Shown here piece by piece: positions 19,836-45,263 of a stretch of 45,263 nucleotides of DNA. Made by a program: the position numbers and the translations under genes. This DNA comes from Candidatus Bipolaricaulota bacterium (GTDB lineage: Bacteria; Bipolaricaulota; Bipolaricaulia; UBA7950; UBA9294): the NCBI GenBank assembly GCA_041302485.1, contig JBFYRA010000030.1, positions 1 to 45,263 of the forward strand, in the 5' to 3' direction. Below the pieces are notes generated by a model that saw only the letters and a list, made by a program, of their open reading frames with translations, was not told where the DNA came from and did no database searches. How positions within the stretch are numbered: position 1 is the stretch's first letter; each line of letters opens with the position of its first letter.

Positions 19836-19841
19836 CGCTCG

Positions 19842-20002: not shown

Positions 20003-20043
20003 CGCGGAAGGAGGAGGATGTGGACAGGCGATCTTCGTCGGGA

Positions 20044-24072: not shown

Positions 24073-24086
24073 GGTCGCTCCTTTGC

Positions 24087-26719: not shown

Positions 26720-26742
26720 TCGAGCGGCAAGGAGCGAATTCC

Positions 26743-26880
26743 ATGAAGTGGGGCGGGTTCAATCGCGAAGGGGAGAAGAAGATGAAGAAGCTGTTCAGCG
26801 GGAAGGCACTTACGGTGTTGTTGGCGATCGCGGCGCTGGGGCTGCTGATGAGCGAGACGTTGAAGTGGAGACCGTTCTAG
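26743..26880 (+). CDS. 45-aa peptide, copy 2 of 3
   Basis: Identical protein to copy 1. AAGGAG lies 8 nt before the ATG. Copy 2 differs from copy 1 at 8 sites and from copy 3 at 4 sites, all synonymous. Confidence 0.7.
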   Translation: MKWGGFNREGEKKMKKLFSGKALTVLLAIAALGLLMSETLKWRPF

Positions 26881-26903
26881 TCGAGCGGCAAGGAGCGAAT
26901 TCC

Positions 26904-27041
26904 ATGAAGTGGGGCGGATTCAATCGCGAAGGGGAGAAGAAGATGAAGAAGCTGTTCAGCGGGAAGGCGCTTACGGTGTTGTTGGCGATCGCGGCGCTGG
27001 GGCTGTTGATGAGCGAGACGTTGAAGTGGAGGCCGTTCTAG
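26904..27041 (+). CDS. 45-aa peptide, copy 3 of 3
   Basis: Identical protein to copies 1 and 2, with the same 23-nt spacer TCGAGCGGCAAGGAGCGAATTCC upstream. Confidence 0.7.
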   Translation: MKWGGFNREGEKKMKKLFSGKALTVLLAIAALGLLMSETLKWRPF

Positions 27042-27135
27042 TCTGGATCGGCAGTTCGCTGGGCGGGCGTACGGAGTTCTAGTAAGATCCGGGTGACGCG
27101 CGGGATGAGCACAACGGCGACGGCCAGGAGGGTTC

Positions 27136-28443
27136 ATGCAGCTCCCGTTTCGGGCTATGGCTTTTGTAGTCTCACTGGCCCTCCTTGCGCTGGCGTCCCT
27201 GGGCTGGGGAGCGGCGCACCTCCATGCGCCGACAACCGCTGATCTCGTCTTATTCTTCGTCTTCGCAGCCCTGGCGGTGTTCGCCGAGGTCTACGCGACG
27301 TGGATCCCCGCCTACAAGTGGGAGATCTCGAGTTCGATCGCGATCTACCTCGCAGGGCTGTTCATCCTCGGCCCCGATCTGGTTCTTCCGCTCGTCTTCT
27401 TTTCTTCTGTCGTCTCGGAGCTCCTCCTGCGCTGGGGCGCGCGACGTGACACGTGGGCGACGGCCCTCGTACCGATCATATTCAATGTCGGGCAAGCAGT
27501 TGTTGCTGTCACCTGTGCCGGCATTCTCTTGCGCGTGCTCGGCTATGCGACGATCGAGATGCGCGAGGCGAGAGACTTCGCCGTGGCGGTCGGCGCTTTT
27601 CTCGTCTATTTCGCGCTCAACGTGTCCCTTGTGGTCGGGATCATCTCCGCCACCCAGCCGCGCCGGTTCTGGCACCTTCTGTTCGAGAACCTGCGCGCTT
27701 TCTTCGTCCAGTACGCCGTCCTGTGTGTCTCCGCGATCCTTCTTGCCGTCCTGCGTTCGATCTCGATGTGGCACGTCTTTCTCGCCCTCTTCCCTCTGAC
27801 GCTCGTTCACATCTCGTTCCGCAGCTACCTCAAATTGCAGACGCAAGCGCGCAGCACGTTCGAGAGGATGTCGCAGCTGCTCGACGCCCGCGATCACTAC
27901 ACGGCCGTCCACTCGAGCGAGGTCGCAGATCTGGCTCTGGCGGTCGGCCGGGAGATGGGCATGCCGCAGAGCGACCTCGAGCAGATCGACATTGCGGCCC
28001 GCGTGCACGACATCGGCAAAGTCGCGATCCCGGACAAGATCCTTCTCAAGCCCGGCCCGCTCGACGACGCGGAGTGGAAGATCATGAAGACGCACCCCGT
28101 GGTCAGCGCGCAGTTGATCGAAGGGCTCGAGATCTACTCCTCGGTTGCCGAGGCCGTGCGGCATGAGCACGAGCGGTGGGACGGGTCAGGCTACCCCGAC
28201 GGACTGAAGGGCGAGGAAATCCCGCTTATCGCGCGAATCATTGCGACGGCCGACATCTACAACGCGCTGTCGACCGATCGGCCGTACCGGAAGGCCTTCT
28301 CACACGAGGAAACAACTCGCATGATCCGCGAGATGCGGGGAGCGGACATCGATCCGCGGCTGGCGGACGCTCTGCTGCGAGTCATCGACCGACGAGCAGC
28401 CGAGCGTGCCGCGCCCCCTCAATCCGCGGAAGCCCAAGGATGA
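27136..28443 (+). CDS. Multi-TM sensor with cytoplasmic HD-GYP domain (c-di-GMP phosphodiesterase family), 435 aa
   Basis: AGGAGGGTTC-ATG start. The N-terminal ~230 aa is polytopic. HDIGK and [12 protein letters not shown] motifs are present. Confidence 0.9.
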
Positions 28444-31078: not shown

Positions 31079-32374
31079 CTACGGATAGAGCCGGTGGATC
31101 TGTCGCGGGAACGGGATGACTTCCCGGATATGTGCCGCGCCGCAAATCCACGTGATGACGCGCTCGAGGCCCATGCCGAACCCCGAGTGCGGCACCGATC
31201 CGTATCTCCGCAGATCGATGTACCACTCGTACGCGGCGCGCGGGAGCTTGTTCTCTTCGAGCTGCGCAATGAGCTCGGCTTCGGTGTCGACGCGTTGACT
31301 GCCGCCGATGATCTCGCCGTAGCCCTCCGGCGCAATCAGATCCGCCGCGAGCACGCGTGTCGGGTCTTTGGGGTCGCGCTTCATGTAGAACGGCTTCATC
31401 GAGACGGGGAAGCGCTCGATGAACACGGGGCGTCCGAAGTGGGCGCCAAGCGTTTCCTCCTCGGGTGCGCCGAAGTCGTCGCCGAACTGGACATCGTGGT
31501 CCTTCCCCTTGAGAAGATCGATCGCGTCGCCGTAGTCGATGCGCGCGAACGGTTGGCGCACCACGGCGAGCAGTGCGTCGGCGTCGCGTTCCAGCGCGAC
31601 GAGTTCAGCCCGGCGCTCGGCGACGACGGCCTCGACGAGTGTGCGCACAAGATCTTCCTGCAGACGGAGGTTGGCGTCGTGGTCGCAGAAGGCCATCTCG
31701 GCCTCGGCAATCCAAAACTCCGTGACGTGCTTGCGCGTCTTCGACTTCTCGGCGCGAAACGCCGGCCCGATCCAGTAGACCCGCCCGAGGGCCATCGCCG
31801 TCGCCTCGAGGTACAGCTGGCCGCTCTGGCTCAGATATGCCTTGTCGCCGAAGTAGTCGAGCTCGAAGAGGGTCGTGGTTCCCTCGACCGACGCGCCGGT
31901 CAAGATTGGCGCTTCCGTCGCGACGAATCCTCGCTCGTGGAAGAAGGCGCGAAAGGCGCGGAATGCCGAGTCGCGGACGCGCAGGATAGGAACCTGACGC
32001 CCGGTACGAATCCACAGATGGCGATGATCGAGAAGGAAGCCTGGCGTCTGCTCCTTGAGCTCGATCGGGAAATCGATCGTCGGCTCGTGAAGGACGTCGA
32101 GCGCGGTGAGCTGCATCTCGCAGCCGCTTGGAGCGCGACGATCCCCGCGCAACGTTCCGCTGACGACGACCGAGGTCTCGCGCGGCAGGCGCACGGCGAG
32201 CGCAAACAGGTCGGGGTTGTCGGACTCCGAGAGCACGGCCTGCAGAACCCCCGTTCCATCCCGCAGTTGCAGGAAGAGGATCTTCCCGCTCGACCGTTTG
32301 TTGTAGAGCCAGCCCTTGAGGATGACCGCCTCTCCCAGATGGCTGAGAGCCTCGGAGACTGTGATCGATACCAT
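31079..32374 (-). CDS. asnS: Asparagine--tRNA ligase (431 aa)
   Basis: GGAGGGGCGGCG-ATG start. It is collinear with Thermus-type AsnRS from memory: GWLYNKRSSGKILFLQLRDGTG, DHRHLW, FRAEKSKTRKHVTEFW, GYGEIIGGSQR, GSVPHSGFGMGLERV...IPFPR. Confidence 0.9.
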   Translation of the reverse strand: MVSITVSEALSHLGEAVILKGWLYNKRSSGKILFLQLRDGTGVLQAVLSESDNPDLFALAVRLPRETSVVVSGTLRGDRRAPSGCEMQLTALDVLHEPTIDFPIELKEQTPGFLLDHRHLWIRTGRQVPILRVRDSAFRAFRAFFHERGFVATEAPILTGASVEGTTTLFELDYFGDKAYLSQSGQLYLEATAMALGRVYWIGPAFRAEKSKTRKHVTEFWIAEAEMAFCDHDANLRLQEDLVRTLVEAVVAERRAELVALERDADALLAVVRQPFARIDYGDAIDLLKGKDHDVQFGDDFGAPEEETLGAHFGRPVFIERFPVSMKPFYMKRDPKDPTRVLAADLIAPEGYGEIIGGSQRVDTEAELIAQLEENKLPRAAYEWYIDLRRYGSVPHSGFGMGLERVITWICGAAHIREVIPFPRQIHRLYP

Positions 32375-32460
32375 CGCCGCCCCTCCGTTGTTTCGGTCTG
32401 GAGAGGGTAGGAGAGCGAGACCCCATTTGCAAGACTCCGTCGCCATGGAGATGTTGACAA

Positions 32461-33186
32461 ATGACAACACCGTCCGTAGACTCGCCCGCCGTGAGCAAGA
32501 AGGAGTTCGGAGACCTCATCCACGCCGCACGATCGGAGAAGAGCCTCAGTCTGCGGCGATTGGCCAGCCTGACCGGCGTCGACTACAGCCGCCTGGCGCG
32601 CATCGAACGCGGGACCCGTCCGGCTCCCGACCTCGCGTCGATCCGAACCCTCGCGGGGGCTCTCGATCTTGACCTTGGGGAGCTGCTGGTCGCCGCGGGC
32701 ACATCGCGCTCCGTGATGGAGGATCTCGTGTGGTCCGAGCGCATGCGCCTCGGGCGGGCGGTTCCCGATCTGGGCGCCTATCGGCCCGGACTGTCTCAGC
32801 TTCGTGAGAGGAACACGTTTGACGGGCCAGTCACGGCGCGGCACGGCGCCCTGTGCAGCGTGCGCGTTGGCAGCATTCCCATCCGAGTCCTTTCGTTCTC
32901 GCCTGCCGCTCGGCTTCGCCTGGTGATCCCGCCGGAGACGGTGGGAGTGTCAGCCGCTGCTCCGACGGAAGCAGGCGGGGCATCGACCACCCTCTTCTCC
33001 GCCCGGGTTGCGAAGGTCCGCGCCATCGGGCAACTCGTCAATCTCGTCCTTGCGGCGGATGGCTTCGAGGTGAACGCGCTCTACGCCGCAGACCCGAGCG
33101 AGTCGGTTCCCGCACGCGGGGACTCCATCTTTGTCACGCTCTTGACCGCAGCGATGTACACAACACCGATAAAGGAGCAAGCATGA
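32461..33186 (+). CDS. XRE-family HTH regulator with C-terminal TOBE-like (Mop-like OB) domain(s)
   Basis: EFGDLIHAARSEKSLSLRRLASLTGVDYSRLARIERG is an HTH_3-type motif. The C-terminal part, FSARVAKVRAIGQLVNLVLAADGFEVNALYAAD...GDSIFVTL, looks like TOBE. An alternative in-frame GTG at 32491 would be leaderless behind TTGACA-N17-TAGACT (32454-32482). Confidence 0.75.
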   Translation: MTTPSVDSPAVSKKEFGDLIHAARSEKSLSLRRLASLTGVDYSRLARIERGTRPAPDLASIRTLAGALDLDLGELLVAAGTSRSVMEDLVWSERMRLGRAVPDLGAYRPGLSQLRERNTFDGPVTARHGALCSVRVGSIPIRVLSFSPAARLRLVIPPETVGVSAAAPTEAGGASTTLFSARVAKVRAIGQLVNLVLAADGFEVNALYAADPSESVPARGDSIFVTLLTAAMYTTPIKEQA

Positions 33187-34676
33187 GAACAAGAGGGGTC
33201 GGAGGGCTGAGCATCGTCATCGCTCTTGTCGGACTCTCAACGATCGCCATGGGGGCGGACTCGTGGAGCGTCACTGTTCAGAATGGAGATCGCGTCGTGA
33301 AGGTGGACCTGCCGCTTCTCGAGATCAGCGCCGGTGGGACGGTCGCCTATGAGGGGCCCGCGATGAGCGACGGCGCCGAGAACTGGAAGTCCACAAAGAC
33401 GTACCATGGCATCCCGGTGGCGGCGATCCTGTCGGACGTCGGCGGCATGGGACCGGATGACGTTCTATCCGTCATCGCCGGAGATGGGTACACGAAAGAA
33501 CTTCCCTACTCCGCCCTCTCCGGCAACACGCCTGCCGGGACGCCGATCCTCGGGCTCGAAGTCGGATCGGACGGAGAGGATGGACCGACCCTCGTTTTCC
33601 TTGCGCCCGATGAGAGACTCTCGAATGCGGACATGCTGGCGGCACTCGGGCCGGAGTACTCCCACTACTACGGAGACAAGCCATCGACGACCGGCCTGCT
33701 CGTGAAGGGCGTTGCCTACCTGATCGTCAACTACGACGGGTCGGCTCTCCCCCCGGCAGCCGAGACGGCGACCGTCGCCTCGGGACCCGCGGACGGCGTG
33801 GTTCTCGCGGTCACGAGCGGCGGAGAGACGCGGTCGTACACGATGGCCGACCTCGGTTTGCTGGAGTCTGTTACGGCGCCGGGCACGTTCACTACGTCGG
33901 CCGGCGTTGACTACACCGCAACGTACACCGGGGTCCCGTTCTCGGCGCTCCTCGGGAACGCTCCAAGCGACGGCACGGTGCGAGTCACGGCGTCCGACGG
34001 CTACTCGATGAACTACCCCGTCTCCCAGTTGCTCGATCGCTCGACGGCGGCGTGGATTCTCGCCTACTTGGAGAATGACTGGTGGATGCCGCTCGATCCG
34101 GGCTACCTGCGAGTCGTCCAGGTTGGAAGCGAGAACCCGCACTTCACGAGCTCGCTCTCGGCACGGATGGTGACCCAGATTGAGGTTCTTGGGACGTACA
34201 CGGAGTACACGCTCACACTGACCGGTGAGACGACGCGCGTCTTCACGCGCGGCGAACTGGAGGCTGGGATTGGCTGCCCGTGCCATACGAAGACGGTCAC
34301 GACCACGATGAAGGGCGTGACGGCCTCGTACTCGGGACTTCCTTTGTGGCGCCTTCTCGCCTACGTGGACGGCGGGTCGGCACCGGCGCCCGAACAGGGC
34401 ATCCACTACGATGAAGTGGACTTCAACGACGCGCTGGCTGCCGAAGGCTACATGGTCGCTCTCACCGCGTCGGACGGATACACCCAGAGTGTGCCTGCGA
34501 GCGTCATCGCGCACGACGACCGCTTCATTGTCGCGTTCAAGAAGGACGGCAAGTTCCTCGATCCGGCGTCCGAGGGGGCGATGCGCTTCGTCTTCGATGA
34601 CTCCGTCGTCTTTCCCGATGGCGTTTCGCTGAAGTCGGTCAAGTTCCTGGTGTCGATCTCGATCGGTCCGAAGTAG
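33183..34676 (+). CDS. Secreted protein with three tandem sulfite-oxidase/YedY-like (Oxidored_molyb-like) modules (497 aa)
   Basis: AAAGGAGCAAGC-ATG start with an ATGA overlap on the regulator stop. The signal peptide is MRTRGVGGLSIVIALVGLSTIAMGAD. Three modules each carry Y-x-G-[IVL]-P-[VFL]-x-x-[IL]-L ... [GS]DGY[TS], and each ends in a beta-strand like RMVTQIEVLG or LKSVKFLVSISI. Confidence 0.7.
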   Translation: MRTRGVGGLSIVIALVGLSTIAMGADSWSVTVQNGDRVVKVDLPLLEISAGGTVAYEGPAMSDGAENWKSTKTYHGIPVAAILSDVGGMGPDDVLSVIAGDGYTKELPYSALSGNTPAGTPILGLEVGSDGEDGPTLVFLAPDERLSNADMLAALGPEYSHYYGDKPSTTGLLVKGVAYLIVNYDGSALPPAAETATVASGPADGVVLAVTSGGETRSYTMADLGLLESVTAPGTFTTSAGVDYTATYTGVPFSALLGNAPSDGTVRVTASDGYSMNYPVSQLLDRSTAAWILAYLENDWWMPLDPGYLRVVQVGSENPHFTSSLSARMVTQIEVLGTYTEYTLTLTGETTRVFTRGELEAGIGCPCHTKTVTTTMKGVTASYSGLPLWRLLAYVDGGSAPAPEQGIHYDEVDFNDALAAEGYMVALTASDGYTQSVPASVIAHDDRFIVAFKKDGKFLDPASEGAMRFVFDDSVVFPDGVSLKSVKFLVSISIGPK

Positions 34677-34683
34677 GTTCGAC

Positions 34684-35727
34684 GTGCACACGGCTGCGGA
34701 GCAGAGGCGCTACCGGTTCGGTGTCCGTGACATCGTTCTCATCGCGCTCTTCTCCGCGGCCGGTGGCGTCCTCTCGACCTACATCGGGTACCTCGGAAAC
34801 CTCGTCAACCGTCTGTTTGGAGTGCCGTTCGGTGCCGGACAACTCATCTCCGGCCTGCACATCGTTTGGCCCCTCTTGGCGCGCGCCCTCGTCGGGCGGT
34901 TCGGCTCGGGGACGCTGACGGGACTCACCAAGGGTGTCGTCGAGCTGTTCAGCGGGGGAACGCACGGCGTCGTCATCGTCCTTGTCTCGGGGATCGAAGG
35001 CCTGTTCGTCGACTTCTGTCTCGGCCTCTCGCGCCGACGCTCTCTCGCGCTCACGATGACGGCCGGAGCATTGGCCAGCGCCTCCAACGTCGTCGTGTTC
35101 CAGGCGATCTACTTCTCCGGCGTGCCAGCCGGCTTCTTCGCGGTGATGATCGGGCTTGCGCTCGTCTCCGGCGCTGCGTTTGGCGGCTACCTCGCGTGGG
35201 ACATCGAACGGCTCCTCGTCTCCGCTCACGTCGTGCGGCCGCCCGAAGCCGCGTCCGCGCCGCGGCCGACCTCTCCCTGGCGTCGGGTCGCCATCCTGGC
35301 GATCGTGTTCGCGTTCCTTGCGGGCGCCGTCTACTACGCGATCGGGATCCTCCGTCCGTTTGCCACGCCCGGGACGGCGTCCGTCGGTGGCTCCGTCGAT
35401 GCGCCCTACACGTTCGTCTACTCCGACTTGGCGACCGAGGAACGCACCGTGCATGCCGAGTTGCGCGGCAGCGCAACCTACGTTCCCCCCGCCGACTACA
35501 CCGGGATTCCCCTCAGCATCATCCTCGCGCGCGCCGCGCCGGCCCCGGCGGCGACGAGAGCGCGCATCATCGCGAGCGACGGCTACGAAGCCTCGCTCGC
35601 TCTGGCGGATATCGCCGGCAGAGCAGACATCGTCCTCGAGCGGGTTGGCGACTCCTTGCGCCTGGTCGCCCCGGGCTACGATGGCGCCTTCTGGGTTGCG
35701 CAGGTGGTGCGATTTGTCGTCGAATAG
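34684..35727 (+). CDS. ECF-transporter S-component-like membrane domain fused to a C-terminal extracytoplasmic Oxidored_molyb-like module (347 aa)
   Basis: The N-terminal ~190 aa has about 6 TM helices (VRDIVLIALFSAAGGVLSTYIG...). An extra TM helix (WRRVAILAIVFAFLAGAVYYAIGIL) follows. The C-terminal module is ADYTGIPLSIILARA...IIASDGYEASL...GAFWVAQVVRFVVE. Confidence 0.65.
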   Translation: MHTAAEQRRYRFGVRDIVLIALFSAAGGVLSTYIGYLGNLVNRLFGVPFGAGQLISGLHIVWPLLARALVGRFGSGTLTGLTKGVVELFSGGTHGVVIVLVSGIEGLFVDFCLGLSRRRSLALTMTAGALASASNVVVFQAIYFSGVPAGFFAVMIGLALVSGAAFGGYLAWDIERLLVSAHVVRPPEAASAPRPTSPWRRVAILAIVFAFLAGAVYYAIGILRPFATPGTASVGGSVDAPYTFVYSDLATEERTVHAELRGSATYVPPADYTGIPLSIILARAAPAPAATRARIIASDGYEASLALADIAGRADIVLERVGDSLRLVAPGYDGAFWVAQVVRFVVE

Positions 35728-37153
35728 CCGATTGGATGTCGAGTTCCGCGACCTCACGGTCCGCTATGCGGATCGCGAGATCGATGCGCTCTCGGCGGTG
35801 AGCGAGCGCATTGCCGACGGCGATGTCGTGGCGGTCGCCGGACCTTCCGGGTGTGGGAAGACGACGCTGTGCCGCACGCTGGCCGGGTTCGTCCCGACGA
35901 TGATTCCCGCACGGGTCTCCGGAGATGTTTTCGTGGGCGGCGAACGGACGCTCGGCGTGCCTCCAGAGTCCCTGGCGACACGGATCGGACTCGTCCAGCA
36001 GGACCCCGATGCTCAGGTCTGCACGCTCCGCGTCGGGCAGGAGGTGGCCTTCGGCCCCGAGAACCTCTGTCTTCCCGTTGAGGAGGTTCGTGCCCGCGTT
36101 GAGCGATCGCTCGATGCCGTCGGAATCGCGGCGCTCCGCGATCGGACGACCGCGACGCTGTCCGGCGGCGAGAAGCAGCGCCTCGCCATTGCATCGATCC
36201 TGGCGATGGAGCCTCGTCTTCTGCTCCTCGACGAGCCGACAGCGAACCTCGATCCACGCGGGGTCCGCAGTCTGTTCGCACTCTTGTCAGAACAGAACAG
36301 GGAGCGACAGAGGACGCTCGTGATCGTCGAGCACCGCATCGACGCGCTGCGCGTTCTTGCGCCGCGCCTGATCCTTCTCGACCGCGGCCGATTGGTGGAT
36401 CGGTACCCGGCGCGCGAGCGCCTCGACTACGCTCGTCTCGGACTTCGCGGCGATTGGGCGGTGGAGCCGTCGGGAGCGGCAGGGAGCGCGGATCTCGTCA
36501 GCGTGAGAGACGTCTCGTTCGGCTACGCGGGGCCGCTCTTGCGCGACCTCTCGCTCTCCCTTCGTGCCGGACAGGTGCTGGCGATCATCGGGCCGAACGG
36601 CGGAGGGAAGACGACATTTCTCCGGCTCGTGGCCGGGCTGGAGGTGCCGCAGTCGGGCAGGATCGACCGCGCGCGCGGGACCGAGATCGGCTTCGTCTTC
36701 CAGCATCCGCACCATCAGATCTTCGAGCGTACCGTGCGCCGGGAGATGGAACTCGAGCACCCCGGGCCGCCAAGCTCCATCGGCGAAGAGTTGCGCGCGG
36801 CTCGGCTCGGCGAGCTGGAGAGCGCAGCGCCGCTGTCGCTGAGTCTCGGCGAGCAGCGCCGCCTCACGGTCGCCACGACGCTCGCCCGTCGGCCGAACGT
36901 GCTCTTGCTCGACGAGCCGTTTATCGGGCAAGACCGGCGCAATGTCCTATGGATGATCGAACGAATCCGCGACGTTGCGGGCGGCGGAGGCGCCGTGGCG
37001 CTCGTCACGCACGACATACCGCTTGCGCGAGCTCTGGCCGACAGGGTCCTGTACCTCGAGGGGGACACGGCGTGGATAGGTCCTCCCGACGAGGTTTTCG
37101 CGCGGCTGCGTGAGCGCGGGGACATCGATTTCACGCCGGAGGCGTGGACATGA
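35714..37153 (+). CDS. Duplicated ABC ATPase of ECF transporters (EcfA-EcfA' fusion, CbiO-like)
   Basis: There are two complete ABC cassettes: GPSGCGKTT / LSGGEKQR / LLLDEPT, and GPNGGGKTT / LSLGEQRR / LLLDEPF. The start is uncertain. TTG at 35714 lies 6 nt after AGGTGG. Alternatives are TTG at 35732 and 35696. Confidence 0.85.
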   Translation: MSSNSRLDVEFRDLTVRYADREIDALSAVSERIADGDVVAVAGPSGCGKTTLCRTLAGFVPTMIPARVSGDVFVGGERTLGVPPESLATRIGLVQQDPDAQVCTLRVGQEVAFGPENLCLPVEEVRARVERSLDAVGIAALRDRTTATLSGGEKQRLAIASILAMEPRLLLLDEPTANLDPRGVRSLFALLSEQNRERQRTLVIVEHRIDALRVLAPRLILLDRGRLVDRYPARERLDYARLGLRGDWAVEPSGAAGSADLVSVRDVSFGYAGPLLRDLSLSLRAGQVLAIIGPNGGGKTTFLRLVAGLEVPQSGRIDRARGTEIGFVFQHPHHQIFERTVRREMELEHPGPPSSIGEELRAARLGELESAAPLSLSLGEQRRLTVATTLARRPNVLLLDEPFIGQDRRNVLWMIERIRDVAGGGGAVALVTHDIPLARALADRVLYLEGDTAWIGPPDEVFARLRERGDIDFTPEAWT

Positions 37154-37902
37154 CCGGGCGGGGGCTCCATCGGGCGGCGCCGCTGGCGAACGCGTTTCTT
37201 CTCCTCTGCATGGTCGGGGCGGTGCTTGCAGTCCCCTGTGTCTGGGTGGGCGCGGCGGCACTGGTTGCGATCGTCTCTCTGGCTGTCGCGTCAGGTGAGC
37301 GGCCAGCGCGCCTCTTGCCCTGGCGCAGGTTCGTCCTCTTGTTCGTCGTGCTGTTGTTCGTTGCTCAGGCACTCTCCGTACGCACCGGCGTGACCGTCCT
37401 CGCGTCCCCCATCCGGCTGACGGATGAAGGACTCTTCTCCGGCGCCCGGATGGCCCTTCGCTTTCTCGTCATCATCAGCGCGAGCGCGCTCTTCGTGCGC
37501 ACGACCGATCCCGACCGGCTCGCGGGCTCGTTCATCCGCCTGCGGGTTCCCTACCGCTATGCATACCTCATCATCCTCTCGCTGCGGTTTGTCCCGTTCT
37601 TTCAGGACGAGTTGCGCGCGGTGCGGGACGCGCAGAAGGTTCGCGGGATCACCTTTTCGGTTCGCAGTCCCCGGCGGGTTCTGCGTGCCGTGAGGTACAC
37701 GTTCGTGCCCGTGCTCGTCTCGGGGCTCTACCGCGTTGACGCCATCGCCATCTCGATGCGGGGACGATGTTTCGGTTTATCGGAGACGCGGACGACGAGC
37801 CGCCAAGAGCTGCGAAGCGGTTGGAGTCCGGCCGCCCTGGCGATCGGGCTTCTGCTCGTCGGACTAGCCGTCGTGGCCTCCGTCGGAAGGTGGAGAGGAT
37901 GA
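37150..37902 (+). CDS. ECF transporter T component (EcfT/CbiQ family), 250 aa
   Basis: GGAGG lies 7 nt upstream, with an ATGA overlap on the ATPase stop. It is polytopic, with the CbiQ-type block AR-x-LRF...DPD and RAVRDAQKVRG coupling-helix motifs. Confidence 0.85.
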   Translation: MTGRGLHRAAPLANAFLLLCMVGAVLAVPCVWVGAAALVAIVSLAVASGERPARLLPWRRFVLLFVVLLFVAQALSVRTGVTVLASPIRLTDEGLFSGARMALRFLVIISASALFVRTTDPDRLAGSFIRLRVPYRYAYLIILSLRFVPFFQDELRAVRDAQKVRGITFSVRSPRRVLRAVRYTFVPVLVSGLYRVDAIAISMRGRCFGLSETRTTSRQELRSGWSPAALAIGLLLVGLAVVASVGRWRG

Positions 37903-38489
37903 AGAACCTGCGACGCGGAATGGTCCTCGGCCTCGTCTTGCTGACCCTCGCCGTGGTGACGCCGCTTGCGGTCCGCTGGGCGACCGCGCCGGCAGGTCCG
38001 TCGTTGTGGATCGAGCTTCCGAACGGAGTGGAGAAGAGGGTCGGCCTCGCGGACCTGAGGCGGCTCGCGCAGATCTCGCGCCGCGGCGAGGTCCAGAACC
38101 AGTTCGGCAACTGGCGCGACGGAGGAACGTACACGGGCGCCCTGCTGGCGGATGTACTGAGGGGAATTTCCTACGCGTCGATCGACGTCGTGGCCGCGGA
38201 CGGCTACCGCATGGCGGTCGATCGTGCGCGCGTCGAAAGCGAGGAGTACCCGATGGTGGTTGCGTACGCTCTCGATGGACTTCTCGTCCCGACGTGGGTC
38301 GATGGCTTTCGGATCGTCGTCCTGCCCGACCACGGTCGGGTCAGCAACGAGGACTACGGCGTCCTATCGGCAGGCAGCTTCTGGGTGAAGAACGTCGTGC
38401 GCATCGTGCCTCTCCCCGCGGCTACCACAGGGTCCGAAGACGAGCCGTCAGGAGCCAGTTCGGACTCGTCGGCCGGAACTCCACCGTGA
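37899..38489 (+). CDS. Secreted/anchored single Oxidored_molyb-like module protein (196 aa)
   Basis: ATGA overlap with the ecfT stop. The signal/anchor is MKNLRRGMVLGLVLLTLAVVTPLAV. The module is GTYTGALLADVLRG...VVAADGYRMAV...GSFWVKNVVRIVPL, followed by a low-complexity S/D/E/P tail. Confidence 0.65.
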   Translation: MKNLRRGMVLGLVLLTLAVVTPLAVRWATAPAGPSLWIELPNGVEKRVGLADLRRLAQISRRGEVQNQFGNWRDGGTYTGALLADVLRGISYASIDVVAADGYRMAVDRARVESEEYPMVVAYALDGLLVPTWVDGFRIVVLPDHGRVSNEDYGVLSAGSFWVKNVVRIVPLPAATTGSEDEPSGASSDSSAGTPP

Positions 38490-40074
38490 GCGCAGCGAAG
38501 ACGTGCCGACTGAACTGGAGTTCGGCGAGGCCCTCCACGAGGCCGACGCCGAACAGGCCGCCCGACGGAGCGGGAGATCGCTCGAAGTAGACGGCCCCCT
38601 TGATTCGGCCGGGCGATCCGCAGCATGCAGCGAGGGCGGTCTCGATGCTGAACGACTCGAAGAACGCCGCCTTTCCGGTGATCGCCGCGTTCTTGTCGTC
38701 GCCGAACGAGTCGGCGACGCGGAAGATGACGTCGCCCACGGGGACCTCGACCTTGGCGCCGTAGATGCGGATCCCGCTCATCCCGGGACCCGGCGCCGTG
38801 AGGAGAATCTCGCCAAGAAAGACGATCTCCGGGCAGATGATCCAGTCCGGGGCGTACCGAAGCGTGGGAGTCAAGGCCTTCTCTTCGAGCGTGAAGACGA
38901 GCGTGACGTCGAGCGTCGCTCCCGGGCCGAGAACCTTCTCAAGGAGTGGAATGTCGCGCGCGACGAGCTCGAGCGACGTGAACCCGTTCGTGCCGCTGAA
39001 CGTGATGCATGCGCTGAGCGGCGTTTGGCAGACGTCCCACTGCCAGTCGACGCACACGGTCGTGTCCCAGAACTCCGGCGGGCAGACGCCAACGCGGACG
39101 ACGGCCTCGAGGTTGAACGCTTCCAGCGCGCCGGAGACCCTGACGAGGTTGTACGACGATGAGGGAACGGCCGCGATGTAGAGCGTGTCGGAGAGTCCGA
39201 CTTCGAACGCGTCGAGTGCAATCGAGGTCTGCCACGAGGTGAACGAGAGCGTCGACGGGTTGAATGCCAGCGTGGACTGGGTCGACAGCCCGCCGATCGG
39301 CCCGGACGCCGCGAACGTGAGCAAGTCGAAGATCGTGTTCGTCAACTTGGCGTCCAGTCGCGCCGAGAAGCTGTCGATCCGGACCGAGGTATTGAACAGC
39401 AACGACGTCACATCGATGTCGAGCGGGAGCGCGCCAACGTGGATCGTCGTCTCAGCGAATCCGGTGAGGCTCGTCGACGCGAGGAGGATCTCGGTCGCAC
39501 GGCTGTCGTCCGTGGGGTCGCCGTTCCCGTCGGCGTCCGGCTCGACTCCGACAGTCGAGAAATCCGTCACCACAGCGCCGTCGGGGTCTGTAGCAAAGGC
39601 AAGCGCGCGGGTCTCGAACCACGCGCCGCCGCCGTTGAGCGCCAGGCGAAGCTTGAGCGTGATGGTGCCACGCTCTCCGGGAGCGAGAGTGTCCGTGCCG
39701 GCCAGGAGGTGGGGTTGCGCTGCGCCGTCGTAGTCGGGATTCACGGCGAGATCGGCGCTGTAGACCTCGACGACGCTCACCTGGACCGGGGGAGGGAAGG
39801 CGGGCACTAGATGATGCCGAACGTTCACGGCTTCGAGCACTGTCTCGCCGCAGTTCGCGACGATGAGCGACAGTGCCACGTCGTACTCCCGCGGGGCGGC
39901 TTCGGCCAGCGACGTGACGCGGAGCGCCGCGCCGATACACGACGTCGTCGCTGCGGCGATCGGCGCGGGGACGTCTTGCGCCGTGCCGGCGACCGAGATC
40001 GCGGCGAGCAGCGCCGCCAGCGCGATGGGCCCGATGGCTGCCCTGTGTTGTTCTCGTGCTCTGTCTGTGCGCAT
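38422..40074 (-). CDS. Secreted beta-rich protein with N-terminal DUF11-like domain; possible outer-membrane/surface protein (550 aa)
   Basis: The signal peptide is ...IGPIALAALLAAISVAGTAQD. A DUF11-like Ig fold (LSLIVANCGETVLEAV...LAPGERGTITLKL) and a DADGNGDPTDD calcium-site-like loop are present. The C-terminal ~350 aa has alternating-pattern strands and ends ...TARLRTLW*. Confidence 0.7.
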   Translation of the reverse strand: MRTDRAREQHRAAIGPIALAALLAAISVAGTAQDVPAPIAAATTSCIGAALRVTSLAEAAPREYDVALSLIVANCGETVLEAVNVRHHLVPAFPPPVQVSVVEVYSADLAVNPDYDGAAQPHLLAGTDTLAPGERGTITLKLRLALNGGGAWFETRALAFATDPDGAVVTDFSTVGVEPDADGNGDPTDDSRATEILLASTSLTGFAETTIHVGALPLDIDVTSLLFNTSVRIDSFSARLDAKLTNTIFDLLTFAASGPIGGLSTQSTLAFNPSTLSFTSWQTSIALDAFEVGLSDTLYIAAVPSSSYNLVRVSGALEAFNLEAVVRVGVCPPEFWDTTVCVDWQWDVCQTPLSACITFSGTNGFTSLELVARDIPLLEKVLGPGATLDVTLVFTLEEKALTPTLRYAPDWIICPEIVFLGEILLTAPGPGMSGIRIYGAKVEVPVGDVIFRVADSFGDDKNAAITGKAAFFESFSIETALAACCGSPGRIKGAVYFERSPAPSGGLFGVGLVEGLAELQFSRHVFAALTVEFRPTSPNWLLTARLRTLW

Positions 40075-40185
40075 CCGCAGACAGTGTCAGGTCTGCATGG
40101 CGGGCACAGGAGGTCCGCCTGCCGCGCGGAGCAAGACATCGGTGCGTGATGCGCATGACGTCGGCGCCGCAGCAGGGATCCCGCG

Positions 40186-43100
40186 CTACGGCCGACGGAG
40201 CGTCCCGATGGGCTCGCTCTGCGGCGGTCCCGGACGGATCGCGAAGACCGGCGCGGCGTCGAAGCACGGTAGACCGACGTGATCGCGCCAGTAGCCAAGC
40301 GGCGTCCACAGTTGGACGCGGTCTGCCAAGAGGTCACTCCGGACGAGATCTGCCGCGCCCGCAGCAGCGTCGGCTGCGAGACTCGGGTCGGCTGCAGCGA
40401 CCTCAGCGAGTGTTTCGAGTGCCAGCGCGATCTCGGCGGGGGAGAGGCGCCAACCGATGCGAGCCGCGGCGGTGAACGCCAGGCGGCCGTCGCGGTCTCG
40501 CGCCGTGGCGGCCCAGGCCTTCCAGGCGGCGAGTCCCTCCTGCTGCAGCGCGCGGTCTCCGAGACTGCGCGCTGCGATGAGTAGGATGTTGATCCGCGCC
40601 AGCTCCTCCTGCGGCAGGGACGCTGCCGCGGCGCGCGCCGGGCCGACGACGGCCGAGATGAGTCCACGTGCCAGAGACGACTCGCGAGGGATGTTGTCGG
40701 CGGCGTCGGATAGCGCTCCGACCGCCACGACCACGTCGGTCCAGCGCGCCGTGCCGCTCCCTGCATCGAGTGCGGACGCAGTGGCTCCGTCGACCTGGAT
40801 GTGCCGGGCGAGATCGGAGAGGACGTAGATCGCGAGGTTCGTCGCGACCCGGACCGCGTCAGCGCTTACCCCACGACTTCCGACGACGCGGGCGAGGCCG
40901 GCGAGAAGCGACGCTTGATCGTAGATGAGGCTGCGTGCGTCGGTGATCGCAACCTCTGCCGCGCCGTCGACCGTCCGAACCTCCACGCCGTGCACGAAGT
41001 GCGTGGCCGCCCCGGAAGAGCCGGCGACGTCATTGAGCCAGGCAAGCTGGCCGCCGAGCGCGATCTCGACGAACCCCGCCAGATACCCGTCCAAGCCATC
41101 TCTCGCGCCGCCCGACGCGTCTAAGAACTGCGCCTCCCGCGCGAGGGTCCATCCGACAGATGCTGGGGTGATCTCGGCGTCTCTGGCAACGAATCCCGTG
41201 CCGCGTTCGAGGACTGGGACGCCGCGCGCCGCGGGCAGGAAGATCGGAAGCGCGAGCCCCGGTGTGCCTGGCAGCCCCGCTTCGCTCGCCAGCAGCGCGA
41301 GGGTGTCCGCCGCCTGCTCGGGCGTCGTCCAGACCGGCGCCAGAGAGAAGGGGATTCCGAGTCCGGACTCGCCGAGCAAGACGCCGAGGTTGGACCGTGA
41401 CGCCGCACGGGCCTCGGCGGCGACCGCGCCGAGCAAGCCTCGGTCGGCGAGGTCCTCCAGCGCTGCAGCCAGTCGCATCGCCTCGTCCGTCCGGTACGCG
41501 AGAGGGGCGTTCTCGAGACCGCCGAGGCGAGCGCCGTCGGCGCTGCCGAGCGTGACGCTGGCGCACGCTTCGCGCTGGGGCCCCGCGACGCCGGCTGCAT
41601 CCGTATAGGCCAGCGTGGCGCAGTTCGTGAGTGTCTCGCCGAGCTCGGCCGACGGATCAACGCGCACGTCGATCTGCCACGTCAGCTTGGATCCTGGATC
41701 GAGCCGCGCCGACGTCCAGCGCAGCGATCGCCCGTCGCTCGTCGCCCCAGGGCTCGCGGCGACGAGCGTAACGCCCTCCGGCAAGAGGTCATCGAGAACC
41801 AGTGCGAAGAAGGTCTCTGGCGATGGGTTCTCGCCCTCGATCGTGTACCGAATCAGGTCACCCGGCCGCGTCCATGCAAGTCCGCCGAGCGGCGACCTTG
41901 GCTCGATACAGACGCGGCGGTCGAACACGGGGGCGTAGGCTTGCTCCTGACCTTCCTCGTCCAATGAGCGGGCTGGAATCTGCAGATCGGCTGCATCGAG
42001 GACGCGATCAACGTGGCGCTCGAGACGCGACGCGATGGCCTCTGCATCGATCGGGTCCACGTACGCGCACGCCTGCGGGAGGACCGCGACGGCGAGCGCG
42101 AGGTCGAGCGGCGTCATGCACCAAGAGAGATGGTCGAGTCGGCCCACGTAGATCTCCGCGTCGGAGTCCCAGAACCTCGCATCGAACGCGAGGAGCGCCG
42201 ATCGGATTCCCGGTGCGCCGCCGCCAGCACGTCGGTCGGCGACGAGCAGTCCGCTCAGGGCGCCGAGTTGCCCGCTCAGAGTTGGTGTCTCGCAGAACGC
42301 CGCCATGTCGTGGTCGACGCTCCACGTCTCGCGGAACCCGCCGCTTCCGTCCCACAGTGACGAGTTCACGAAGGCGGCTTGTTCCACGAGCAGGATGCGC
42401 GAGCGCTCGGCGAGATCGTCGAACGTCTCGCCGGTCCGTTCAAGCGCCATCATGATGAGACCGAGATGTCGCGCGGAGACGCTGTCGCCGGGGGTCCAGC
42501 CGGAGGTGTCGGGGGCGGCGAGATCGGCGAGCACCTGCTCCAGTGGGCGACGGTGTGCGGACTCGAGCGTCCCCAGGGCGACGTCGGCGAGCGATGCGCA
42601 ACGAGCCTCAACATCCGCTGGAATCGCCGCGACGGCGGCGAGCGAACCGGCCGCGGCTGGGTCGCGGGCCAGACGCACGAGCTCGGTCAGTCCGAACAGG
42701 AGCGATGCCTGATCGAAGAGACCGCTCGTCCGATCGATGACGTCCATGCGGACGTCCCCGGCCTCTGGGATTGCCGAGTAGGCGTGGGCGACATAGCGAG
42801 TCTCGCCCGGTCCCGCGAGAACGAGGCCCTCGAGGGTCGAGAGCTTGCTGATCGCCGACGCGGCAAGGACGCGCGCCGTCAGTCTGTCTTCCGGCGTGAG
42901 ATCTGCGTCGCCCCGTGCGGCCAGCTCGCGCACCTCCTGCGCCTCGCGCAGGAGCGTCATTCCGATGGCGGAAGGGACGATGCGCGTGTCGAACGTGAGG
43001 GGATTCCACGTGAGGCCCGCATCGGGCCCGGTGCCGAGGTGCGGGTCGCCGGCGAAGAACGGGACGACGATCGGCTCGAGCGACGCAGTCGACCCGACAT

Positions 43101-45263
43101 CGTCTGCAAACCTCTCCGGGGCGCCGGCGAGTGACGAGTACGCCGTGAACGGGACGCCGAGACCTGAATGGAAGTCGACGGCGATAAGGTTCGCGTCGGC
43201 GTCGTCCGCGCGGCCAAGGTCCGAGTTCTGCAGCACGTAGGACGCCATCATCGCGATGTCGGTCTGATACCACGGGTCGTCGGGCAGGATGCGCAGACCG
43301 CCGCAGGCCGCTGTCGACGCCGCGTCGACGAGACAGAGCGAGCGTTGCAGAACTGGTGCGAGGACGCTCGCGTCCTCCACTGCGATCCCGAGCAACCTGT
43401 CACGGCCGGAGCCCGCAGAGAGACGGGCGGCGGATTCGTCGCCCGCGTTGTCGAGCTGCAACGCCGCGTCGTCGAGGACACTGCGCGCGAACGCGGCGAG
43501 TCTCTGAAGTGCGAGCGCAGATCGGTCTGCGTCGCCACGTGCGGCCAACTCGCGGAGTGCGCCAACGGCGAGCCCGATGTCGAGCGCCGTGTAGCAGAGC
43601 GGCGTGTCGTCGGCCTCCGGTAGCCGGTAGAGACCGAAGCCCTTCCAGTCATCCCATGCGTGTCGCTCGAGGAAGTCGAACGTTCGCTCCGCCGCCGGCA
43701 TCCGCCCGGCGATGAGAAGCGCGTAGAGGCCGGCGAACTGCGACGCGAGTTCCGTATCGACATTCGCGGTGGGCGAGACCGAGGCGAATCTGCCGTCGAC
43801 GCCCTGGCGGCTCAACAGGAGAGCGATCGCGGCCGCCTGGATCGCGCGAAGGGTGTCGGCCGCGTCGTCACCCGCGCCGAGGGCCGCGTCGGTTGCAAGG
43901 ACGAGGAGTGCGACATCGACCGTTGAGGCGTCGATCCAAGTTCCGTCCGGGGATCCGGGCGATCGCGCGACGATTCGTCCGTCGGCGGCGATGTGGTACG
44001 CGGCCACGGCATCTGCCGCGCGAACGAGCATCGCGCGAGCCCCGGCCTCAAGAGCAGTCGCGAGGCCCAGCTCCGATGCCGGCCAGTCCGGCGCAGTGCT
44101 CCGCAGGAATTCGAGCGTCCTCGCGGCACCCCAGACGAGCGATGCCTGATCGAACAGCACGCTCGCGCTGTCCGAGATTGCGAACTGACCCGGAACGTTG
44201 AGGGCGTGGGCAACGTGCGGGATGTAGGCGGGCCCGTTCGTCGGTCGGACGGTCAGGTCCCTGTCGAGCGCAATGAGTTTGTTGGCCATTGCTTCCGCGA
44301 GGATCCAGCCGACGTAGCGCTCACCGGCGTCAACGGAGGCGATTAGGGTCTCGGCGGCCTGTGCCTGGCGCAACAGGCTCATCCCGAGGCTGCTTGCGAC
44401 CACGTCGCCATCGACGAACGTCCACTCCCCGGTCGGTCCCCACGGGGTGTCCTGGCTTGATCGGAAGACAGGCTCTCCTGCCTCCGCTTCGAGGTAGGTC
44501 CAGCGTCCATCCGGAACCACATCGTCGGCCGTCACTCCGGCGCGCTGTGCCAGAACAGTCAAGCGTTCGGCGAGGGCGGCCTCGTTGGACACGCGCGCTC
44601 TGGCGGCGGCGTCGACGATCCTCGGTCCGTCCGCCAGTTCCACGCCGAGCGAGGACAGGACCTCGACCTGCAGGAGGTTTCCAAGAGCGTACCGGTCGAA
44701 CTCGTCGCGTACGGTACGGGTCCAGATGGGAAGCAGCGTGTCGGGGAAGACGTCGCCCGTGCGCCCGTCGCGGGCGAAGGAGGCGAACTCCGTTGCGGCA
44801 AACATCGCAATGTCGGTCTGGAACCAGACGCGGTCCACGACGGCCGCCGCGCCGAGGCAGGCGCTCGCTTCCAGCGTCTCCGCCGTCTTGCGCAAGACGG
44901 GCGCGTTGATCAAGCCGCCGGCGCCTTCGAGAATCCAGGAGCGCCCGCGAATGGACACCGAAGAGGCGTCGTCGGAGTCCGTGTCTGCCGAGACGGTCGA
45001 TTGCTGATCGGCGGGAATCGGAGTGCCAGCGGCGTCGGTTCCGACGGCGACCATGACGTTGACGTAGTTGCGGCCGTCCACAATGGGCTCCGACACCGTC
45101 GCGTCGAACTGGACGACCGCGCGCTCGCCGCGCTCGAGCGTTGCCTGGAGGTTGAACTCGAGCGACCCCGCGGCGAACCCGGGGTCGGCGGTTGAGAAGA
45201 AGGCGGGAGCGGTGGCGACCGTCGAACCGCGGACATAGGCGAACTGCGGTGGCAGCGTGTCGC
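40186..45263 (-). CDS. Giant (>1690 aa) secreted/surface-type protein, 5' end outside the window: DUF11-like domains alternating with three large alpha-helical repeat modules
   Basis: The frame stays open to the window edge (DTLPPQFAYVRGSTVATAPAFF...QFDATVSEPIVDG...), so the listed GTG at 45096 is internal. Motifs recur three times (see finding). There is an internal DUF11-like domain (LIRYTIEGENPS...LLPEGVTLV...TNCATLAYTD). Confidence 0.8.
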   Translation of the reverse strand, partial: DTLPPQFAYVRGSTVATAPAFFSTADPGFAAGSLEFNLQATLERGERAVVQFDATVSEPIVDGRNYVNVMVAVGTDAAGTPIPADQQSTVSADTDSDDASSVSIRGRSWILEGAGGLINAPVLRKTAETLEASACLGAAAVVDRVWFQTDIAMFAATEFASFARDGRTGDVFPDTLLPIWTRTVRDEFDRYALGNLLQVEVLSSLGVELADGPRIVDAAARARVSNEAALAERLTVLAQRAGVTADDVVPDGRWTYLEAEAGEPVFRSSQDTPWGPTGEWTFVDGDVVASSLGMSLLRQAQAAETLIASVDAGERYVGWILAEAMANKLIALDRDLTVRPTNGPAYIPHVAHALNVPGQFAISDSASVLFDQASLVWGAARTLEFLRSTAPDWPASELGLATALEAGARAMLVRAADAVAAYHIAADGRIVARSPGSPDGTWIDASTVDVALLVLATDAALGAGDDAADTLRAIQAAAIALLLSRQGVDGRFASVSPTANVDTELASQFAGLYALLIAGRMPAAERTFDFLERHAWDDWKGFGLYRLPEADDTPLCYTALDIGLAVGALRELAARGDADRSALALQRLAAFARSVLDDAALQLDNAGDESAARLSAGSGRDRLLGIAVEDASVLAPVLQRSLCLVDAASTAACGGLRILPDDPWYQTDIAMMASYVLQNSDLGRADDADANLIAVDFHSGLGVPFTAYSSLAGAPERFADDVGSTASLEPIVVPFFAGDPHLGTGPDAGLTWNPLTFDTRIVPSAIGMTLLREAQEVRELAARGDADLTPEDRLTARVLAASAISKLSTLEGLVLAGPGETRYVAHAYSAIPEAGDVRMDVIDRTSGLFDQASLLFGLTELVRLARDPAAAGSLAAVAAIPADVEARCASLADVALGTLESAHRRPLEQVLADLAAPDTSGWTPGDSVSARHLGLIMMALERTGETFDDLAERSRILLVEQAAFVNSSLWDGSGGFRETWSVDHDMAAFCETPTLSGQLGALSGLLVADRRAGGGAPGIRSALLAFDARFWDSDAEIYVGRLDHLSWCMTPLDLALAVAVLPQACAYVDPIDAEAIASRLERHVDRVLDAADLQIPARSLDEEGQEQAYAPVFDRRVCIEPRSPLGGLAWTRPGDLIRYTIEGENPSPETFFALVLDDLLPEGVTLVAASPGATSDGRSLRWTSARLDPGSKLTWQIDVRVDPSAELGETLTNCATLAYTDAAGVAGPQREACASVTLGSADGARLGGLENAPLAYRTDEAMRLAAALEDLADRGLLGAVAAEARAASRSNLGVLLGESGLGIPFSLAPVWTTPEQAADTLALLASEAGLPGTPGLALPIFLPAARGVPVLERGTGFVARDAEITPASVGWTLAREAQFLDASGGARDGLDGYLAGFVEIALGGQLAWLNDVAGSSGAATHFVHGVEVRTVDGAAEVAITDARSLIYDQASLLAGLARVVGSRGVSADAVRVATNLAIYVLSDLARHIQVDGATASALDAGSGTARWTDVVVAVGALSDAADNIPRESSLARGLISAVVGPARAAAASLPQEELARINILLIAARSLGDRALQQEGLAAWKAWAATARDRDGRLAFTAAARIGWRLSPAEIALALETLAEVAAADPSLAADAAAGAADLVRSDLLADRVQLWTPLGYWRDHVGLPCFDAAPVFAIRPGPPQSEPIGTLRRP

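Follow-up and report, generated by a model that had tools for sequence, protein, structure and literature searches.

The six-gene operon and its transporter core

The stretch of DNA analysed here (the window, 45,263 nucleotides of contig JBFYRA010000030.1 from a Candidatus Bipolaricaulota bacterium, assembly GCA_041302485.1) carries an operon of six co-directional genes on the forward strand, spanning positions 32461-38489, which encodes an ATP-binding cassette (ABC) importer of the energy-coupling factor (ECF) type together with five copies of a small domain predicted to have the SUOX fold, i.e. that of sulfite oxidase and YedY. One of these copies (termed modules below) is fused to the S component of the transporter. 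Gene identities were assigned by profile searches against Pfam and NCBIfam, and the features of the operon, in order, are:

32454..32482 (+): candidate sigma-70-like promoter, TTGACA-17-TAGACT, a consensus match only (one site found against 0.3 expected)
32461..33186 (+): regulator, with an alternative start at GTG 32491
33183..34676 (+): P2, a three-module protein of 497 residues with an N-terminal signal peptide (PF00174, 2.3e-12)
34684..35727 (+): P3, the fusion of S component and module (PF09819, 6e-16)
35732..37153 (+): fused ATPase EcfA-EcfA', TTG start (two ABC_tran domains)
37150..37902 (+): EcfT of the CbiQ family, the transmembrane coupling component (PF02361, 1.2e-29)
37899..38489 (+): P6, a single-module protein (module 5) with a probable N-terminal signal-anchor (its family profile matches PruR-type PDB entries only)

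The six co-directional genes, with ATGA start/stop overlaps at 33183, 37150 and 37899, had been described in a first-pass annotation of the window, and all are present. Its open reading frames (ORFs) likewise exist, but its gene starts require amendment, in that the ATPase starts at TTG 35732 and the regulator perhaps at GTG 32491. The promoter-like site overlaps ATG 32461 and has its -10 element ~8 nt before GTG 32491, and the regulator orthologues start at the equivalent of the latter codon; because of the orthologue starts and the position of the promoter-like site, the true start may be GTG 32491 rather than ATG 32461, an arrangement which suggests that the regulator transcript is leaderless or nearly so. 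A search for operator-like inverted repeats ahead of the regulator gave only a trivial 9-nt palindrome, and no riboswitch was matched in Rfam at the gathering threshold in the window or in four related loci, nor at E<=1 in positions 32000-34800. The G+C content is ~65% across the window and the operon shows no compositional break.

The ATPase matches TIGR04521/TIGR04520 at 1e-80 and the cbiO profile TIGR01166 with 239 bits against a cut-off of 212, and the translation of EcfT contains the Arg motifs AQKVRG and SMRGR. In P3 the match to the YkoE-type ECF S component family, PF09819, covers residues 15-132, with a weak match to PF00174 (0.004) over residues 234-335. Of the Pfam families named on first inspection, Oxidored_molyb (PF00174), an ECF S-component family (PF09819), ABC_tran (two domains) and CbiQ were matched. 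An AlphaFold2 (AF2) model of P3, made with 44 homologues (pLDDT 81), has six core helices followed by one more (residues 198-222), and a C-terminal domain rich in beta structure, corresponding to the following parts of the gene:

34684..35238 (+): S-component core, six transmembrane helices, YkoE-like (PF09819; profile and Foldseek matches to 5EDL)
35275..35349 (+): seventh transmembrane helix (helix 198-222 of the AF2 model), preceded by an Arg-rich linker
35359..35727 (+): module 4, the domain of predicted SUOX/PruR fold fused to the S component (Foldseek)

The N-terminal half of P3 is, as had been proposed, an ECF S-component fold; its best Foldseek match in the PDB is YkoE (5EDL; E 1.7e-7, TM-score 0.81, root-mean-square deviation (rmsd) 1.8 A), and the S core matches the same entry by profile with E 2.4e-9. 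With a six-helix S fold, EcfT and two EcfA ATPase domains co-encoded with the S gene, the six-gene operon is that of a group I (dedicated) ECF-type ABC importer, transport itself being predicted. The absence of an extracytoplasmic binding protein is the textbook hallmark of ECF transporters among ABC importers, and it fails here, as the operon encodes five predicted extracytoplasmic modules, one of them S-fused. Group I precedent for extra transmembrane helices and for accessory components, extracytoplasmic or in the membrane, assisting substrate loading is provided by CbiMNQO and NikMNQO, with CbiN, NikN, NikK and NikL, although the S components of these systems are of another family (CbiM/NikM, with an N-terminal metal-binding loop) and their accessory proteins are unrelated to the SUOX fold. 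Since the C termini of S components are cytoplasmic and the linker before the seventh helix is Arg-rich, we infer that this helix puts module 4 outside.

The core resembles the group I thiamine/hydroxymethylpyrimidine (HMP) importer YkoEDC of Bacillus subtilis in its S fold, its fused double ATPase, its CbiQ-type T component and its gene order (S-AA'-T), and differs from it in the seventh transmembrane helix, the SUOX-fold domain and the four modules supplied in trans. In YkoE, thiamine is bound by W49, Y46, E77, Q95 and D131, with E77 hydrogen-bonding to the aminopyrimidine (PMC5037267). These residues map in P3 to H59, A56 (Ala or Ser in the family), E87, E105 (Glu, Gln or Ala in the family) and Q140, such that only the aminopyrimidine-bonding Glu is retained and the thiazole contacts are lost. 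When 32 diverse P3 homologues from bacteria and archaea, down to ~31% identity, are aligned, Q53, H59, W62, K83 and E87 of the S core do not vary and position 110 always holds an acidic residue; on this alignment the S-fusion family has one common pocket, which is distinct from the thiamine pocket.

The retained Glu, the position of YkoE as nearest solved homologue, the gene order shared with ykoEDC and the JGI annotation of homologues as thiamin/HMP permeases are what would be expected of an ordinary YkoEDC-type thiamine/HMP importer equipped with accessory thiamine-binding domains. We nevertheless regard such an importer as very unlikely, given that W49 is replaced by an invariant His, Y46 by Ala/Ser and D131 by Gln, that Q95 is variable (contacts as in PMC5037267), that the module fold is without known thiamine binding, and that no thiamine pyrophosphate (TPP) riboswitch was found, a protein regulator being present instead. 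Thiamine was rejected as the substrate on the basis of the S pocket residues and the missing THI-box.

Five SUOX-fold modules and their likeness to PruR

In addition to modules 4 and 5, three modules lie in tandem in P2:

33255..33752 (+): module 1, of the P6-like type (ENW...YxG...DGY...SNxDM; alignment, HMM matches)
33795..34193 (+): module 2, the best Pfam Oxidored_molyb match (PF00174, residues 237-336 of P2)
34194..34673 (+): module 3, in which a conserved Cys-Pro-Cys-His precedes YSGLPLW, with an insertion of ~20 residues (HY..FND)

The five modules, of ~120-160 residues each, align with invariant Tyr, Gly, Leu, Ala and DGY. By profile-profile comparison with hhalign, the P6 family (a profile of 41 sequences) matches the C-terminal domain of P3 with 96.5% probability (E 1e-9) and module 2 with 94% (E 1.5e-7), whilst module 3 matches the P3 domain with 91.6% (E 8e-7) and P6 with 91.5%; as judged from these profiles, all five modules are homologous. 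They fall into four types, i.e. the P6-like type (P6 and module 1, with the motifs (Q)N.FGNW or ENW and SN(E/D)(E/D)), module 2, module 3 and the S-fused type. The pattern that the first-pass annotation had assigned to all of the modules is accordingly common to them with respect to its Tyr, Gly and DGY, but its terminal FWV strand is confined to modules 4 and 5.

The fold assignment draws on several of the proteins. P2 matches PF00174 (Oxidored_molyb), best over module 2, whereas P6 has no Pfam or NCBIfam match and none of its 67 homologues is annotated. In Foldseek searches of the PDB the C-terminal domain of P3 matches nitrate reductase, SorA, YedY and sulfite oxidase with E 1e-6 to 2e-4, and the PruR structures 7rkb, 7kos and 7kou with E 2e-4 and a TM-score (target) of 0.63. 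When the P6 profile was run against all PDB sequences, only PruR-type entries matched (7kom, 7kos and 7rkb, with E 0.018 for 7kom and 7kos). The profile matches and the predicted structure together indicate that the modules have the SUOX/YedY fold, in agreement with the initial recognition of the repeated unit.

The modules share with the SUOX molybdoenzymes (SorA, YedY/MsrP, sulfite oxidase and the plant and fungal nitrate reductases) the core fold and the aromatic-x-G-V-P-L, DG(Y) and WVK motifs. They differ in that their length is below about one-half to two-thirds that of the domain that binds the molybdenum cofactor (Moco), in having no dimerisation or heme domains, and in that the Mo-ligand-type Cys is absent from modules 1, 2, 4 and 5; as first noted, only the third module of P2 has candidate cysteines for that position. 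There, the CPCH sequence lies 18 residues before YSGLPLW, and a Cys...His pair (CPCH, CPETPH, CPTTAH or CEDH) is kept across phyla, in three aligned Bipolaricaulota orthologues and in L010, L012, L015 and L018 of the related loci described below. A profile of module 3 run against PDB sequences gave only noise, with no direct match to solved SUOX proteins, so its Cys position could not be mapped onto them.

The N-terminal region of P6 (37899-37990) has an RR motif (RRGM(L/V)) in 32-36 of 41 homologues, followed by ~20 hydrophobic residues that end in R-W. P6 had been proposed to be secreted; the long conserved hydrophobic N terminus makes it more likely that it is held in the membrane by a signal-anchor. 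The conserved RR prompted consideration of a Tat signal for P6, which was judged less likely because the ~20-residue hydrophobic stretch ends in the conserved R-W.

That the modules are catalytic extracytoplasmic Moco enzymes of the MsrP/YedY kind, with the ECF genes adjacent by chance or supplying them, is highly improbable. The SUOX fold, the conserved Cys...His of module 3 and the RR of the P6 N terminus would be in keeping with such a role, but four of the five modules have no Cys, their 120-160 residues are far below a full Moco domain, the operon contains no gene for a heme or electron-transfer partner, and a covalent link of one module to the S component recurs in ~35 clusters (50% identity).

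A binding role has a structurally characterised precedent in PruR. PruR is a small exported protein of SUOX fold with Trp70 in place of the Mo-ligand Cys, and in its shortened cleft Tyr104 and Trp160 sandwich the pterin ring while Asn102 forms a hydrogen bond (Greenwich et al. 2024, PMC11194511); Asn102 is an Asp in some PruR groups (PMC13259868). In a HMMER alignment W72 of P6 pairs with PruR W70, and D101-G-Y103 with N102-D-Y104, and the invariant W162 of P6 lies three residues past the position aligned to PruR W160. W72, D101, Y103 and W162 are invariant among the P6 homologues. In the fused module of the 32 fusions Asp299 is present throughout, Tyr272 and Tyr301 in 31 each and Trp337 in 29, and Gly274 is conserved. 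The Asp and Tyr of the putative clamp are invariant in all five modules, the C-terminal Trp being present in modules 4 and 5 only. On the basis of these alignments and of the motifs, the Asp/Tyr/Trp triad of the fused module may be read as the counterpart of the Asn/Tyr/Trp pterin clamp of PruR.

The modules resemble PruR (7kos, 7kou, 7rkb, 7kom, 7kp2) in being small, exported, truncated forms of the SUOX fold that are predicted to be non-catalytic, in that P6 and, as judged from its motif, module 1 have a Trp where the Mo-ligand Cys would stand, and in that modules 4 and 5 have the Asn/Asp-x-Tyr motif and a C-terminal Trp that is the putative counterpart of the clamping Trp of PruR. By analogy, the PruR proteins appear to be their closest functional analogues, and the earlier suggestion that most of the modules are non-catalytic binders gains a solved precedent from them. 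The biological settings differ, in that PruR signals to the GGDEF-EAL enzyme DcpA in Proteobacteria, whereas neither the window nor any of the related loci examined contains a DcpA-type GGDEF-EAL gene, and here the fold occurs in multiple copies, with tethering to a subunit of a transporter, the hosts being anaerobic lineages outside Proteobacteria as well as archaea.

Distribution, regulation and a candidate uptake mechanism

A search with P3 at E<=1e-5 found 413 homologues, those that bear a name being from Candidatus Bipolaricaulota metagenome-assembled genomes (MAGs), and an exhaustive search of representatives at 50% identity gave 321 clusters at E<=1e-3, of which ~35 are full-length fusions, the others including unfused S cores, transmembrane-plus-module proteins and multi-module proteins. 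Four loci came from a single-sequence scan of genome contigs, and the wider distribution from the 50% representatives with contig look-ups and an HMM scan. By cluster names and loci, the fusions could be placed in MAGs of Bacillota and Bacteroidota, in Atribacteria, Promethearchaeota, Kariarchaeaceae (Asgard) and other archaea; database labels of the homologues are 'ECF transporter S component', 'thiamin/HMP permease' or 'hypothetical'. A conserved core of module proteins, S-fusion, EcfAA' and EcfT is present in Bipolaricaulota, Atribacterota, Bacillota-type MAGs and archaea, including Asgard, and in every related locus examined, bacterial or archaeal, ECF and module genes are linked, as had been expected.

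The S-fusion is followed by EcfAA' and then EcfT in every sufficiently long locus, with the order S-T-A in L007, and one or more secreted module proteins accompany it in all loci but L009. The full six-gene order is common to all of the Bipolaricaulota loci, with P2 split into two genes in L015; P2 is conserved in L001-L003 and L005/L006 (Bipolaricaulota), at 68-81% identity among those aligned. The genes flanking the core encode unrelated housekeeping or surface proteins, and a check of the neighbourhoods for thiamine genes outside the core gave nothing usable. Scattered hints in the neighbourhoods, i.e. FmdE-domain genes in L007 and a ModA-like solute-binding protein (SBP) gene in L011, are too sparse to use. 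In L007, a 1-Mb metagenome scaffold, genes for FmdE-domain plus zinc-ribbon proteins (6500-7021 and 19373-20047) and for several FecCD/Peripla_BP_2 transporters lie around the S-fusion and EcfT genes, with three small SUOX-fold module genes on the opposite strand. L011 (700-15400) has three paralogous S-module fusions, one EcfT, a 1755-residue four-module protein and a PKD-module protein, with the ModA-like SBP_bac_11 gene adjacent and no ATPase gene within the stretch.

Four loci from outside Bipolaricaulota, two of them bacterial and two archaeal-type in context, encode beside the S-fusion a Metallophos protein of 437-550 residues that has a P6-type module as its C-terminal domain and carries a lipobox or signal-anchor:

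L010, 5919-7232: Metallophos-module fusion
L012, 7364-9016: Metallophos-module fusion
L014, 38-1603: Metallophos-module fusion
L017, 7436-9004: Metallophos-module fusion

The catalytic domain of these proteins is nearest to the SpdA/CpdA cyclic-nucleotide phosphodiesterases and to GpdQ. The fusion of such a phosphodiesterase to a P6-type module raises the alternative that the system imports a non-pterin nutrient derived from nucleotides or phosphodiesters (a purine, a 7-deazapurine or queuosine precursor, a flavin, a deazaflavin or another aromatic vitamin), with the modules acting as generic binders of aromatic rings. A Tyr/Trp clamp would suit many planar rings, and the S pocket differs from that of YkoE; however, the characterised ligands of the SUOX fold are pterins and Moco only (PMC11194511), the proposed counterparts of the PruR triad show conservation, and the Rfam searches gave no riboswitch, whether of the preQ1 or FMN class or of any other. 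Overall, we consider this alternative unlikely, though the foremost of the rivals discussed here.

The regulator has an XRE-type helix-turn-helix (HTH) at residues ~15-78 (HTH_3/HTH_31, 8e-8), a helical linker and, at residues ~117-237, a C-terminal TOBE/di-Mop-like beta domain that begins with an R/K-N motif. An HTH/TOBE-like regulator had been claimed from the start. The HTH was found directly and the TOBE assignment is supported by orthologues and by the predicted structure, but the copy in the window itself has no Pfam TOBE match, even at E<=10 with the C-terminal part alone. Three orthologues from syntenic loci match TOBE_2 (8e-5 to 3e-3), and among the homologues PF03459 TOBE is matched in 13 of 42 (best 5.6e-7) and PF08402 in 12 of 42. 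The sole match of a C-terminal domain profile in the PDB is the regulatory domain of Methanosarcina ModC (3d31, E 0.015), aligned over its whole length. In Foldseek the AF2 model (pLDDT 86) matches 3d31 (2.8e-9), GlcV, ModE (2e-7) and ModG (TM-score 0.72, rmsd 2.6 A), with MalK and PotA close behind. The 61 homologues found are alike over their full length, and the gene is always the first of this operon, also in the case of a distant homologue (44% identity) with other chromosomal surroundings.

As predicted from sequence and model, the regulator is an XRE-HTH protein with a di-Mop/TOBE domain, ModE-like in layout. Its likeness to ModE and to the regulatory domain of ModC lies in the succession of a DNA-binding domain and a di-Mop-like beta domain; it differs from ModE in its XRE-type HTH, where ModE has a winged helix, and the window copy is below the Pfam TOBE threshold, the likeness being one of predicted fold and layout.

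The molybdate and tungstate binders MaModC, ModE and ModG are the best relatives of the regulator, and JGI names some of its orthologues after molybdate or Mop proteins, which could point to an importer of molybdate/tungstate or of another metal, in which the S pocket, acidic and rich in His, would coordinate the metal together with the module that has Cys and His, and the Mop-like regulator would sense the oxyanion. The conservation of H59, E87, H94 and D/E110 in the S core, the Cys...His of module 3 and the ModA-like SBP_bac_11 gene that adjoins one locus could be accommodated in the same way. Binding of free oxyanions is, however, not known to us from any ECF system or SUOX-fold protein, a planar organic ligand is what the conserved aromatic clamp points to, the S component belongs to the vitamin type of YkoE and not to the CbiM/NikM type, and the TOBE matches to MalK, GlcV and PotA are almost equal; an oxyanion or metal importer is thus, in our view, quite unlikely, more so than one for a non-pterin aromatic nutrient.

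The mechanism that we favour for the operon is that of an ECF importer with tethered and secreted capture modules of SUOX fold. In it, a diverged YkoE homologue would have gained a seventh transmembrane helix and an extracytoplasmic truncated SUOX domain, with four further copies of the module acting in trans, three in the secreted P2 and one in the membrane-anchored P6. The modules would be non-catalytic capture and hand-over domains that bind their ligand as PruR binds pterins, with a planar heterocycle clamped between the Tyr of DGY and the Trp and hydrogen-bonded by the Asp; they would pass the ligand to the S pocket lined by the invariant Q53, H59, W62, K83 and E87, and EcfT and EcfAA' would drive import. 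The XRE-HTH regulator, through its di-Mop/TOBE ligand domain, would control the operon, and in other phyla the module-fused phosphodiesterase may trim a phosphodiester- or nucleotide-linked form of the ligand at the surface before uptake. Gene content, folds, the homology of the modules, the conservation of residues and the conserved linkage are what the analysis shows; the outside topology, the binding role of the modules, the hand-over, the direction of transport and the class of substrate are elements that we infer, and the architecture and mechanism taken as a whole are held with moderate confidence, somewhat better than an even chance.

Several points weigh against this proposal. The inter-domain arrangement in the P3 model is uncertain (pTM 0.52), and the extra transmembrane helix and tethered domain might impede the toppling movement of the S component. 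Three of the five modules are without the C-terminal Trp, W337 and W162 correspond to PruR W160 by motif position and not by superposition, and the PDB sequence E-value to PruR is weak (0.018). The PDB sequence matches to PruR and ModC are both marginal and carry weight only because the fold searches agree with them. ABC ATPases for sugars and polyamines likewise contain TOBE domains, with similar Foldseek scores, and no genes of pterin, folate or Moco biosynthesis are present in the neighbourhoods of the loci examined.

With respect to the substrate, our best guess, a tentative one that falls a little short of an even chance, is a pterin-type cofactor or precursor. It is preferred because no ligands other than Moco and pterins are known for the fold, because the putative clamp residues are conserved, because the Glu that reads an aminopyrimidine is retained in the S pocket, and because the host lineages are all anaerobes, in which case reduced pterins or molybdopterin (MPT) could persist outside cells. 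A molybdenum- or tungsten-containing pterin is a doubtful refinement of this guess, with only a minor share of the probability. It is suggested by the presence of a second molybdenum-associated fold, that of the Mop-like regulator, by the module type that keeps Cys...His, and by the binding of non-dinucleotide MPT by SUOX enzymes, a form producible by a diesterase from the guanine or cytosine dinucleotide forms (MGD, MCD), points that are not decisive. On a joint reading that is similarly doubtful, the operon would be dedicated to the uptake of a pterin cofactor, as the first system of its kind, serving the salvage of MPT, Moco, the tungsten cofactor (Wco) or a precursor (cyclic pyranopterin monophosphate (cPMP), or a dinucleotide trimmed by the fused phosphodiesterase) in strictly anaerobic bacteria and archaea, and the surface SUOX modules would protect the oxygen-labile cofactor and relay it to the S component.

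No description of an ECF-SUOX module architecture was found in the searchable literature, and that on Moco biosynthesis in Bipolaricaulota was uninformative. To our knowledge, the literature describes no Moco or MPT importer in prokaryotes. The rule that ECF transporters have no binding protein is broken here in a conserved way, with a binding-type domain fused to the S component via an added transmembrane helix and more such domains in trans, and it becomes a question of mechanism how an S component with a fused module would topple in the way that the toppling model proposes. No system that moves pterins across bacterial or archaeal membranes is known (PMC13259868). The operon is a concrete, cloneable candidate, in which a fold with only pterin and Moco ligands characterised is wired to a vitamin-type importer. 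Cofactor cross-feeding in uncultured anaerobes (Bipolaricaulota, Atribacterota, Bacillota-type MAGs and Asgard) may partly explain their resistance to cultivation.

Other features of the window

Upstream of the operon, positions 26579-27043 (+) contain a 161-bp tandem repeat of 2.9 copies, 96% identical, each copy of which encodes the same 45-residue peptide with the hydrophobic core MKWGGFNREGEKKMKKLFSGKALTVLLAIAALGLLMSETLKWRPF. The repeat lies directly upstream of a gene for a membrane HD_5/HD-domain protein (27136-28443), and three 45-residue genes are called at the corresponding place in the Bipolaricaulota locus L005 (1889-2348). On the reverse strand, an ORF of 1069 residues (20884-24090) combines serine hydroxymethyltransferase (residues 93-430) with the folate-binding aminomethyltransferase domain GCV_T (672-944), an apparent fusion of two folate-dependent one-carbon enzymes. 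Convergent to the operon, the region 38425-45096 (-) encodes a very large surface-type protein (DUF11/CLIPPER repeats, 1636 residues) and a 550-residue protein without a Pfam match. The counterpart DUF11/CLIPPER surface-type protein in L005 (13774-21044) has 4624 residues, and the arrangement is syntenic in several Bipolaricaulota loci.

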